Below, in pieces: positions 40,786 through 45,983 of a stretch of DNA of 64,000 bases. The DNA comes from a bacterium (GTDB lineage: Bacteria; UBA8248), in assembly GCA_965203325.1 (NCBI GenBank), contig OZ241875.1:1216001-1280000 (forward strand), given 5' to 3'. Numbering within the stretch: position 1 is the first letter of the stretch; the number at the start of each line of letters is the position of its first letter. Under the pieces are notes generated by a model that saw nothing but the letters and a program-made list of their open reading frames with translations, ran no database searches and was not told where the DNA came from. A program made the translations under genes and the position numbers.

Positions 40786-43209
40786 CTACCACCGCTTCGA
40801 GCCGCGCAGCAGTAGGCCGCCTTCTGGTCTCCCGCCGCCCGCCTGTTCGGTGAGCCTCGCCTCGAGGCTCACCTCCGTGGCCGCCCCGGGCTTCCAGCGC
40901 GCGCCCGCGCGCCAGGTCTCCGCGTTCCCCGAGACCGCAACGCCCGTATAGGGCGTCAGCAGACCGCGCGGGGCGTCCAGGCCCCAGGCCGCCTCGGCCT
41001 CGAAGCCAGCGGCGCCCGGCTCGAACCCACCGCCCGGCGAGAGGCCCGCCGCCTGCGACCAGAGCCGCTCCGCACCGCCGGCGGAGGCGCCCCACGAGGA
41101 GCCCGCCCGAAGCGTGAGGCCGCGTCCCCCGGAGCCCGGAGCGTACGCCACCGAGGCGCTCACGCCCCATTCCTCATAACCGCCCTCGCCGTGGGAGAGC
41201 AGGCCGCGCGCGCGCACCTGCGTCGTCAGGGCACCCGAGGTCCAGCGGACAGAGCCGCCGGCCTCCACCCCGCCGCCCGTCTCCGCGTCGCCCGAATCGT
41301 TCCGGAACCCTATCTCCAGCGAGGGCGTCAGCACCGCATCGCCGAACCTGAGCGAGCGCGAACCCTCCAGCACGAGGCGCACGCGGCTCGTCTCCGCCTC
41401 GGTCTCCGCCAGGCCCGCCGCAGCGTCCGAGCGCGTGTTCGTCACCAGGACGTCCGCGCGGAGCGCGAGCTCGAACCCGCCCGCCTCGCGCGCGGGCAGA
41501 ACGACCCCGCGCGCCCCGGCCGCCGCCATGCCCATTGCCACGTCGGCCTCCACCGGGGACGACCCCCCGGGCGTGAGCGTCATCTCCCCCTGCCCATGGC
41601 CCACCGCGCCCCAGAGCGAGAACGTCCCGCTCACACGGTAGCGCGCGTAGGGGTAGACACCCGTAAGCGTGCTCTCCACCTCGCCCGCGCAGCCCGCCTC
41701 GCACGCGCCGCCCGCCTTGTACGAGCCGTCGCCCGCGCTTCGCGAGAGCGCCACGCCCACCAGCCAGCGCGCCCGCTCGTAGTCGAAGCCCACGGTCGCC
41801 GTCGTCACGTCGCCCTCGAGCGAGAGATCGCCCTCGGCGCCCTCGAACGAGGAGCGCGCGCCCCGGCCCCAAAGCGACCAGCGCCCCCCCGGCGCGTCCC
41901 CGCCGCCGGCCGAGGCCATGTGAAACGAACTCGCGAGCAGGAGCTCGGACATCGCGACCTCGCGCACCGAAGGCGCCTGCGCCTCCTCACCGCGCCCGAG
42001 CCGGGCCTCCCTCTCCTTGAGGAGGGCCTCGGCGAGGCGCGACTCGATGGCCTCGCGCTCCGCCCCGCCCGTGAGGCTGTGGCCGCCCAGCACGACGCCC
42101 GCGGCGCCGCCGCCCGACAGGCGTCCTTCAATCGCCCCGGCGACGTGGCCCGCCGCCGCGCGCCCGAAGCGCGCGAGCCACATCCTTTGCAGCGGGTCGT
42201 CGTTGCGAATCACCCCCTTCGCCTGGCGGTGAATCCCCCGCAGATACGCACCCCGGGGGTTCGACAGCTTGAGCTTGAACGTCTCCTTGCCCTCGTCGAT
42301 GGCGTCGTCGAGCAGCGGCACCGAGACCGTCTTCGCCGTCTCGCCCGCCGCGAAGGTCAGCGTGCCCGACGTGGCCGTGTAGTCCTCACCCGCCGCCGCC
42401 GTGCCGTCCTCGGTCGCGTAGTCCACCGAGACCGTGTGCGCCGCCGCGCGGTTGAGCGTCACCGCGAAGTCCAGCGATGCGTCCCTGCCTTCCTTCGCCC
42501 GCGCGTCCTTGACCCGGATGCGCACCGGGCCGCCTATGGTCATACTCGACGTGTTCGTGAGCGTCCTTCCGTCGGCCGTGCACACCGCGCCCGCCGCGCC
42601 GCAGGCGCGCCCGCCCGCAAGCGTCACCGTCATGTCCTTCCACGACTTCGGCGCGACGCGCACCCGCCACAGGCCGGACGCCACCCTGCGCACGTCCTTG
42701 ACCCTGCCGCCCTGCACGGCGAAAGAGGCTGCAGCCGGGGCGCTCGCGGTCTCGCCCAGCGCCTCGCTGAAGCGCACCTCCAGCGCGAACGCCGCCTTGC
42801 CGTCATGCTCTTCCGGCGCTCCCTCGAACGCCGCCGTCAGCGGCTCCGACGCCTGCTGCTGCGCCACCTGCTGCCGCGCCGGCTCCGGCGCCGCCTCGCG
42901 CGTCACCGTCACCGTGTAGGTGCGCGTGTAGCGCGCGTCCGGCGCCGTCACCACCACCACGATGGTATTCTTCCCCACGGCCAGCGCCACCGGCGTCGAC
43001 GGGTCGCCGCCGTTCACCGTCACCCGCGCATTCGGGTTCTCGGGGCTCGCGTTCACCGTGACCTCGGTCACGTCGTGGGCCACCGTCGCGCTGTAGGTCT
43101 CGCGGTCCGGGTCGAACGCACCGTCCAGGCTCACCTGCCCGGCCCCGGCGCCCGTCGCCATGCACAACGCCGCCGACAGCAGCACCGCAATCCGTACCAT
43201 CTTCTTCAT
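40786..43209 (-). CDS. Autotransporter-like adhesin anchor: signal peptide, cadherin-like beta-sandwich, Calx-beta, C-terminal beta-barrel
   Basis: FDPDRETYSATV...YTVTVTR; VDYATEDGTAAAGEDY...GTLTFAAGET; WLARFGR linker helix; amphipathic strands ending in W. Confidence 0.85.
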   Translation of the reverse strand: MKKMVRIAVLLSAALCMATGAGAGQVSLDGAFDPDRETYSATVAHDVTEVTVNASPENPNARVTVNGGDPSTPVALAVGKNTIVVVVTAPDARYTRTYTVTVTREAAPEPARQQVAQQQASEPLTAAFEGAPEEHDGKAAFALEVRFSEALGETASAPAAASFAVQGGRVKDVRRVASGLWRVRVAPKSWKDMTVTLAGGRACGAAGAVCTADGRTLTNTSSMTIGGPVRIRVKDARAKEGRDASLDFAVTLNRAAAHTVSVDYATEDGTAAAGEDYTATSGTLTFAAGETAKTVSVPLLDDAIDEGKETFKLKLSNPRGAYLRGIHRQAKGVIRNDDPLQRMWLARFGRAAAGHVAGAIEGRLSGGGAAGVVLGGHSLTGGAEREAIESRLAEALLKEREARLGRGEEAQAPSVREVAMSELLLASSFHMASAGGGDAPGGRWSLWGRGARSSFEGAEGDLSLEGDVTTATVGFDYERARWLVGVALSRSAGDGSYKAGGACEAGCAGEVESTLTGVYPYARYRVSGTFSLWGAVGHGQGEMTLTPGGSSPVEADVAMGMAAAGARGVVLPAREAGGFELALRADVLVTNTRSDAAAGLAETEAETSRVRLVLEGSRSLRFGDAVLTPSLEIGFRNDSGDAETGGGVEAGGSVRWTSGALTTQVRARGLLSHGEGGYEEWGVSASVAYAPGSGGRGLTLRAGSSWGASAGGAERLWSQAAGLSPGGGFEPGAAGFEAEAAWGLDAPRGLLTPYTGVAVSGNAETWRAGARWKPGAATEVSLEARLTEQAGGGRPEGGLLLRGSKRW

Positions 43210-45983: not shown

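Follow-up and report, generated by a model that had tools for sequence, protein, structure and literature searches.

How can a single surface adhesin be assembled from two proteins that carry separate export signals, when the break between them appears to fall inside one folded domain? The question is raised by two adjacent genes in a 64,000-nucleotide stretch of DNA from a sponge-associated bacterium (GTDB lineage UBA8248; GenBank assembly GCA_965203325.1, contig OZ241875.1, positions 1,216,001 to 1,280,000 of the forward strand), which we call the window and whose own numbering is used throughout. From its sequence, the pair is predicted to encode a surface adhesin as two separately exported proteins: an upstream protein ending in what may be the first strand of a beta-sandwich domain, and a downstream protein beginning, after its own signal peptide, with the remainder of such a domain. 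The first-pass annotation of the window proposed that the two chains dock by donor-strand complementation to give an adhesin with an exchangeable tip, and it called for a search for conserved gene pairs with the same break point, a search for other proteins ending in the same tail motif, and a prediction of the complex. Here we present a computational analysis that covers all three, and we arrive at a two-chain autotransporter adhesin held together by strand complementation as the best explanation of the locus, at a probability of roughly one half.

Both genes read on the reverse strand. The upstream gene, or donor, occupies 43224..45983 and encodes 919 amino acids from MKNIAR, which is an uncertain choice of translation start, to a C-terminus translated as ...NARLRALDLNSGN, where the closing ...VDAANARLRALDLNSGN is followed by TAA. 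Its protein is laid out as a two-part leader, an FN3 domain, two intact cadherin-like repeats, Calx-beta-like domains and a C-terminal tail, and it is without a barrel. The leader (45747..45983) consists of hydrophobic residues 1-19, an Arg-rich spacer and a second hydrophobic stretch (residues 53-79) ending in AEA; this second stretch is likely the Sec signal, with a putative cleavage site. The two tandem repeats (44361..45086), each starting STNADLS, were recognized by Pfam (PF12733), the first of them was also modeled with AlphaFold 2 (AF2), and the donor tail is the last 17 residues (43227..43277; VDAANARLRALDLNSGN), the proposed strand A that would be supplied in trans. The junction (43210..43226) is made of the TAA stop and a 14-nucleotide spacer, with a ribosome-site-like run of six G placed 8 nucleotides 5' of the next ATG. 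From there the downstream gene, the acceptor or anchor (40786..43209), begins MKKMVRIAVLLSAALCMATGAGAGQVSLDGAFDPDRETYSATV in a frame different from that of the upstream gene and encodes 807 amino acids, arranged as a signal peptide, an incomplete cadherin-like domain, a Q-rich linker, a middle domain, a Calx-beta domain, a helix and a C-terminal beta domain ending in W. The signal peptide covers residues 1-23 (43141..43209), with cleavage probable after AGA; the acceptor domain, a cadherin-like beta-sandwich without its first strand, covers residues 24-110 (42880..43140) according to Pfam and the complex model described below; Calx-beta covers residues 244-320 (42250..42480; Pfam 74.5 bits, cut-off 27); and residues 331-807 (40789..42219) hold the helical linker and the C-terminal beta-rich domain, presumed to be an autotransporter translocator. 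Re-reading the sequence gave the same open reading frames (ORFs), coordinates, tail, 14-nucleotide gap and differing frames as had first been reported. Between the two genes no promoter-like or terminator-like site was seen. The G run between stop and ATG is 5-7 long in nine of ten loci of this kind and 3 in one of them (L030), and its length differs by one base in public contigs; because the run lies outside both reading frames, any effect would fall on ribosome-site spacing.

Is one domain divided between these two proteins? In Pfam searches the downstream protein matches PF12733 (gathering cut-off 24.2 bits) over residues 30-105 with 71.3 bits, entering the profile at position 8, and the upstream protein carries two intact copies (89.2 bits). 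The AF2 model of the first intact upstream repeat, with a predicted local distance difference test score (pLDDT) of 85.6, places a confident first strand at LSALTAGSS (residues 14-22), followed by a loop and then by the strand NFSIGTF (residues 30-36). The downstream segment VSLDGAF aligns with NFSIGTF, both proteins reach Pfam positions 8-9 at this point, and the mature downstream protein has about 6 residues where the intact repeats have about 30. Because VSLDGAF aligns with the second strand of the intact repeat, the mature downstream protein is without about one strand and a loop, and the earlier claim that the downstream domain lacks its first strand is borne out by profile and model alike. 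The domain that we call split is the structural repeat unit, as the Pfam model itself begins after strand A, and the correspondence between tail and strand A was set by position and by the model, not by alignment. Fused paralogues in the same genome, including frames of 1436 and 1686 amino acids, carry in the corresponding position, between Calx-beta and the Q-rich linker, a contiguous domain, which reads AHLDGLSVEG, a loop and LDLGAF. Searched with Foldseek, the model of the intact repeat returned generic immunoglobulin (Ig)-like sandwiches only, at template modeling (TM) scores of 0.62 or less, and sequence searches of the PDB gave nothing usable (one had 0 matches; another had a best E of 0.21).

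The material inserted at the break comes from the gene family itself. From -20 to +59 around the two ATGs, the starts of the downstream and upstream genes are identical at 56 of 79 nucleotides, a value that none of 5000 shuffles reached (maximum 36), and the similarity of the two signal peptides to which the annotation had drawn attention is thus real at the DNA level. By this identity the insert is a copy of the family's own 5' leader, comprising its ribosome site and first leader segment and sited in the loop after strand A, and the downstream signal peptide is homologous, in its DNA, to the first part of that leader. The first part is common to seven genes in the genome; one paralogue, and the genes of the metagenome-assembled genomes (MAGs) discussed below, carry only the second hydrophobic segment. 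The Arg-rich spacer of the family leader is about 33 residues long. A leader with two hydrophobic segments resembles the ESPR layout by analogy only, and the Pfam ESPR model had no match in the proteins at E values up to 0.01.

The same junction recurs within this genome and far from it. It is present three times in this single-contig genome, behind upstream genes that differ in their N-terminal half and have the same C-terminal half and tail. The genome holds exactly three tails and three acceptors, always adjacent, with no orphan donors, and only 4 of its 7016 open frames of at least 200 amino acids have the pattern N..L..L.[LM] within 20 residues of their C-terminal end, three of the four being these loci. 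A scan of species genomes found, in three MAGs labelled Alphaproteobacteria, seven loci whose match begins at residue 1; another 19 loci (L037-L055, 37-53% identity) match from residue 18 or later. In all seven there is a tail, a stop, a gap of 12-14 nucleotides and an ATG, and the upstream frames, 369-1790 amino acids long, are open in every one. Both TAA and TAG serve as stops, and each of the three possible frame relations is represented, with the two genes sharing a frame in four of ten loci; together with the gap of 12-14 nucleotides, the varied frame relations uphold the view that the break is not a simple nonsense or frameshift lesion. The genomes of the three MAGs are distant, as judged from their best PrpD homologues, which are 35% identical or less to that of the window. 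Among 41 genomes of relatives, the window's own included, the junction DNA had only weak partial matches in two others, and the acceptor protein had one weak match only, in G022, among 42 related genomes; the carriers of the junction lie outside the window's family.

Beyond these close copies, both of the diverged metagenome loci that were examined (L056 and L057, with acceptors 68% and 56% identical; the set leaves out L059 and L060) retain the split, and a further locus (L058) has an ordinary contiguous domain. The tails of the two split contigs, NDALERLYLRFRSSP and NNTLLAVLEMRTSPQ, end in codons other than the window's. The split lies at the same break point in 12 of the 12 loci whose junction DNA was read. 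The domain ahead of the tail is Calx-beta in most loci, FN3 in L033, and yet another sandwich domain in L056 and L057, so that the tail belongs to none of those domains; its reading as part of the preceding domain, which varies among loci, was rejected. A looser form of the pattern, N..L..L.[LMIV] near the C-terminus, had been fixed before the diverged loci came to light. Of 81 database matches to the last 220 upstream residues, 17 end in the motif, and so both conserved gene pairs with the same break point and other proteins with the same ending, the first two things that the annotation had called for, do exist. The strict tail motif was internal in 0 of the best 120 of 152 longer database proteins, the only close homologue among those 120 has the tail at its end as well, and the database matches listed include no fused form of the tail. 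On the downstream side, 9 of 12 homologues fetched (from at least 120 matches) begin with the signal peptide and acceptor. Public contigs from four runs in three studies bridge the junction, some of them labelled sponge metagenome, and one tail codon varies among them; none of the public contigs listed has the joint without the insert, and contigs cannot show absence.

The third check was the complex, predicted from the last upstream domain with its tail against the mature acceptor. The prediction used alignments made for this analysis, so the calibration of the tool is only roughly valid, its mark being reached by 116 of 157 solved complexes and by 2 of 215 mismatched pairs. The tail is placed in the acceptor domain with an interaction prediction score from aligned errors (ipSAE) of 0.70 (runs 0.70, 0.69 and 0.80), a measure of fit and not of binding, against 0.02 for the best control. 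At least 78% of contacts are in common between runs, with a partner pLDDT of at least 85, and the acceptor has a pLDDT of 85-89 with the tail versus 68 when an unrelated protein replaces chain 1. Tail residues 137-153 of chain 1 contact acceptor residues 49-61 and 83-102, where the expected errors are lowest, and the modeled tail forms an edge strand on acceptor residues 49-58 through antiparallel pairing of 144 with 57, 146 with 55 and 149 with 52. Tail position 8 and acceptor position 53 face each other in the model; D at the former goes with N53 in seven loci, and Q with T or S at 53 in three. Two covalent locks were considered and rejected, an isopeptide bond because the acceptor's only lysine (K80) varies (K, E) in the alignment, and a disulfide because neither tail nor acceptor has a cysteine. 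Since K80 is not conserved and the tail has no cysteine, any link between tail and acceptor would be non-covalent.

Which secretion class does the pair belong to? Autotransport is defined by a passenger and a translocator in one chain, and only the downstream chain combines the two in one polypeptide; the distal passenger is a separate ORF. We presume the downstream protein to be an autotransporter by transitive homology, without a direct Pfam match: PF03797 had no match to residues 334-807 even at E values up to 10, and paralogues in the genome that score above the PF03797 cut-off share 35-45% identity with the C-terminal region (E 1e-43 to 3e-89). The AF2 model of residues 331-807 has an N-terminal helix and then about 20 long strands in an all-beta meander at a pLDDT of only 52, where a classical type Va translocator is a 12-stranded barrel with a helix in its pore, and its best Foldseek matches are outer-membrane barrels, EspP at rank 19, with TM scores of 0.31 or less. 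The barrel named in the first-pass annotation is favored by homology to the PF03797-passing paralogues and by the low-confidence all-beta model. In translation the protein starts with MKKMVR, a hydrophobic run and AGA, and its C-terminal residue is W, in keeping with the N-terminal Sec signal and aromatic last residue of classical type Va autotransporters. The upstream protein has no two-partner secretion (TPS) domain (Pfam, E up to 0.01), and the TpsB family PF03865 had no match in the genome, though control genomes gave none either. No chaperone or usher Pfam family was found among 32 ORFs of the window. The secretin family PF00263 was not found in the 95%-complete genome, which only lowers the likelihood of a type II route. 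No canonical lipobox was apparent by eye (the residue before Cys is L or F), and by sequence inspection the partners are not lipoproteins.

The mechanism that we propose runs as follows. One operon, probably under an invertible promoter, would give two polypeptides, each with its own Sec signal. The candidate promoter is a pair of inverted repeats just 5' of the upstream gene (46083..46295), whose 27-nucleotide arms (46083-46109 and 46269-46295) flank 159 nucleotides and are 89% complementary, a figure that describes repeat geometry only; next to these repeats no recombinase gene was identified. The upstream chain would be a variable distal passenger, and the downstream chain the stalk and outer-membrane translocator. 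With a copy of the family 5' leader inside the A-A' loop of a cadherin-like sandwich, the upstream protein would end in strand A and the mature downstream protein would start with the remainder, and in the periplasm, we infer, the tail would insert as an edge strand antiparallel to residues 49-58, completing the sandwich. The completed complex would have the chain order of the fused paralogues without a covalent bond. With a C-terminal donor strand and an N-terminal acceptor, autotransport in the C-to-N direction could run on into the upstream chain: within the anchor, the completed small domain would cross last, and it could then pull the upstream C-terminus through the same pore. A passage in PMC3781032, citing earlier work, reports that autotransporter beta-domains can carry an Ig-type domain already folded in the periplasm.

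A number of observations weigh against this two-chain adhesin, and they are best told with the rival explanation that draws most on them. By that account the split is tolerated and serves no function: after a leader copy had landed in a giant autotransporter gene, the short downstream autotransporter would function by itself, the upstream product would be left over in the periplasm or do something unrelated, and the tail would be a relic carried beside a needed ribosome site and signal peptide. We hold this unlikely, though worth serious attention. In an ungapped BLOSUM62 shuffle test the similarity of tail and strand A was not significant (165 of 1000 shuffles equalled or exceeded the score of the window tail, and 263-717 of 1000 those of the other five tails), so the likeness between them that the annotation had seen comes down to the common pattern N..L..L.[LM]. 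The complex model is expected to reflect a fit of pieces and not binding, as split halves would pass by their likeness to the whole fold, and the one covariation seen, between tail position 8 and acceptor position 53, is confounded by linkage. The ratio of nonsynonymous to synonymous divergence (dN/dS) is 0.4-2.1 in the acceptor, with few changes, and 1.2-2.1 in the last 300 upstream codons, which fits relaxed constraint as well as diversifying selection; in the C-terminal domain, among the genome's own copies, it is 0.27-0.30. The tail is out of frame in 3 of 20 close homologues of the upstream C-terminus (P0137, P0139 and P0157), and the downstream gene is whole in five of seven MAG loci and broken in L032 (353 amino acids) and L036 (284 amino acids). 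The frameshifts in the three homologues may be decay or long-read homopolymer error, and the two broken genes may likewise be assembly errors of the long-read homopolymer kind or decay. The recent exchange of the junction module, set out below, weighs on the same side. To our knowledge there is no outer-membrane route for a chain without a barrel. Split genes of this type can also be ordinary decay, as a passage in PMC1388218 describes for the sca autotransporter genes of Rickettsia.

What this account of a functionless break has difficulty with is maintenance. A useless C-terminal tail should erode first, and the strand pattern is retained in tails that are otherwise 60-70% changed; every upstream gene also retains its own signal peptide. 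Upstream frames are open in all 10 loci checked end to end (369-1790 amino acids) despite about 300 substitutions per 583 codons, and, as 2.1% of single changes would create a stop, the probability of finding none is about 0.0016 per pair. Upstream frames could in part be kept open by gene conversion from working paralogues. On these comparisons we read the upstream protein as a fast-evolving but maintained surface protein, and relaxed constraint is also possible.

Another rival starts from the DNA of the junction. Nucleotide identity, profiled over positions -600 to +361, is 92-100% across the acceptor and falls to 30-60% in the flanks, and the connector module (43141-43277 tail, signal peptide and acceptor, compared with L030-L035) is 92-100% identical to the MAGs. 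Synonymous divergence (dS) between the window and the MAG loci tells the same story, at 0.04-0.11 for signal peptide and acceptor and 0.56-0.82 for the middle and C-terminal parts. The junction module has been recently exchanged between diverged genes and distant genomes, and with such a low-divergence island the constancy of the junction in loci of the window type cannot be taken as a sign of long purifying selection; both points count against the two-chain adhesin. The module may then be a recombination joint, in which a constant piece of about 400 nucleotides (tail, stop, ribosome site, signal peptide and acceptor) is kept mainly as a homology patch, passengers and anchors are shuffled within and between genomes, and docking is incidental or absent. 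The module does sit between different upstream domains and different downstream stalks and barrels, and the same module is found in genomes whose PrpD homologues are so distant. However, a stretch kept for its homology would not require a stop codon, a signal peptide or a tail shaped like a strand, and L056 and L057 keep the architecture without the DNA identity. We regard a joint kept for recombination as an improbable full account, and it is compatible with docking, not exclusive of it.

Recoding would restore a single chain by frameshifting, by readthrough or by the ribosome hopping over the insert of about 100 nucleotides, and the two genes are indeed in the same frame in four of the ten loci. 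This we consider very improbable. Frameshifting and readthrough were rejected on the variation in frames among loci, with all three relations found and both TAA and TAG in use, and readthrough would place the signal peptide inside the passenger; hopping was rejected on the lack, in the window's insert, of a landing codon to match AAT, the last sense codon, and the L056 and L057 tails close with different codons. That the break was made by assembly or sequencing has next to no chance, even in a repetitive family over which public contigs are fragmented, given three copies in a single-contig genome, the same junction in three other assemblies and two metagenome contigs, and the contigs from four runs in three studies that bridge it.

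Returning to the two chains joined by strand complementation, a broader extension can be drawn, which we offer tentatively and rate as possible but doubtful. The run of tail, stop, start, signal peptide and strandless sandwich might be a portable connector by which a type V translocator exports and holds a second polypeptide ('piggy-back' autotransport), spread by gene transfer among unrelated sponge symbionts and swapping adhesin tips on constant anchors. The near identity of the connector module to that of the MAGs suggests that adhesin modules have recently moved, by gene transfer, between sponge symbionts that live together. The exchangeable tip proposed in the annotation gains from upstream passengers that differ greatly ahead of a constant connector, and loses from the three tails and three acceptors that are always adjacent and the want of orphan donors.

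The gene pair lies at the edge of a mosaic mobile region (window 1-40000). This region holds a C5 methylase with Vsr (1779-3358), two integrases (3953-6345), a TrwC relaxase (6382-9216), three large ankyrin/Sel1 proteins, one with an FGE-sulfatase domain (11971-22570), an AbiEi/AbiEii pair (33775-36028) and a PIN protein, together with ORFs of 1456 and 733 amino acids that had no Pfam match. The content of G and C is 45-54% at 28-40 kb versus 60-72% beside it.

In the literature searched (a full-text search judged at abstract level, without supplements), which otherwise gave reviews and unrelated work, no two-gene autotransporter joined through a split domain was found, and the annotation's remark that it knew of no description of the arrangement agrees with this. 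We rate the proposed split autotransporter as a combination of known kinds, type V secretion and donor-strand complementation. If it is true, a second chain attached by fold completion, and perhaps exported via the same pore, would widen the cargo of type V secretion and offer a mechanism by which sponge symbionts could have surface adhesins that are both modular and phase-variable. It would also allow a test of whether a small folded domain can draw a chain bound to it non-covalently across the outer membrane.

Among known systems, classical type Va autotransporters, which include the genome's own fused paralogues, have in common with the pair the leader, the FN3, cadherin-like and Calx-beta passenger domains, the linker and a C-terminal domain that is 81-95% identical; here, however, the passenger is cut into two translated products, and the distal one is without a translocator of its own. 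Two-partner secretion (type Vb) also has passenger and outer-membrane transporter in separate adjacent genes, each with a signal peptide. The type Vb transporter is built of POTRA domains and then a 16-strand barrel, whereas the downstream protein here carries its own passenger and a presumed C-terminal barrel, and the upstream protein has no TPS domain. Chaperone-usher pili likewise have an Ig-like fold that is missing an edge strand and is completed by a strand from another polypeptide. In those pili it is the C-terminal G strand that is absent, an N-terminal extension acts as donor, assembly depends on a chaperone and an usher, and a polymer is formed; here the missing strand is N-terminal, the donor would be a C-terminal tail, and pairing would be one to one. 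Type V pili are contrasted with chaperone-usher pili in a passage of PMC13655056: in FimA and Mfa1, a strand near the C-terminus fills the groove left by the removed N-terminal strand of the next subunit. Their pilins are lipoproteins whose groove is opened by a protease after export and which form filaments, whereas here the groove would be genetic and arise from the gene break. Rickettsia sca autotransporter genes, in the passage of PMC1388218 already mentioned, can be consecutive ORFs with species-specific splits, alongside pseudogenes and gene fragments; in the present case the second ORF has gained a ribosome site and a signal peptide, and the break point is kept down to 56% acceptor identity. 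Lastly, in the engineered split of SpyTag and SpyCatcher, a strand peptide completes an Ig-like adhesin domain in trans and an isopeptide bond then holds the two together. With its variable K80 and a tail without cysteine, the pair described here differs in that bond, and if the proposed docking is true, it would be a natural counterpart of the strand tag and its catcher.

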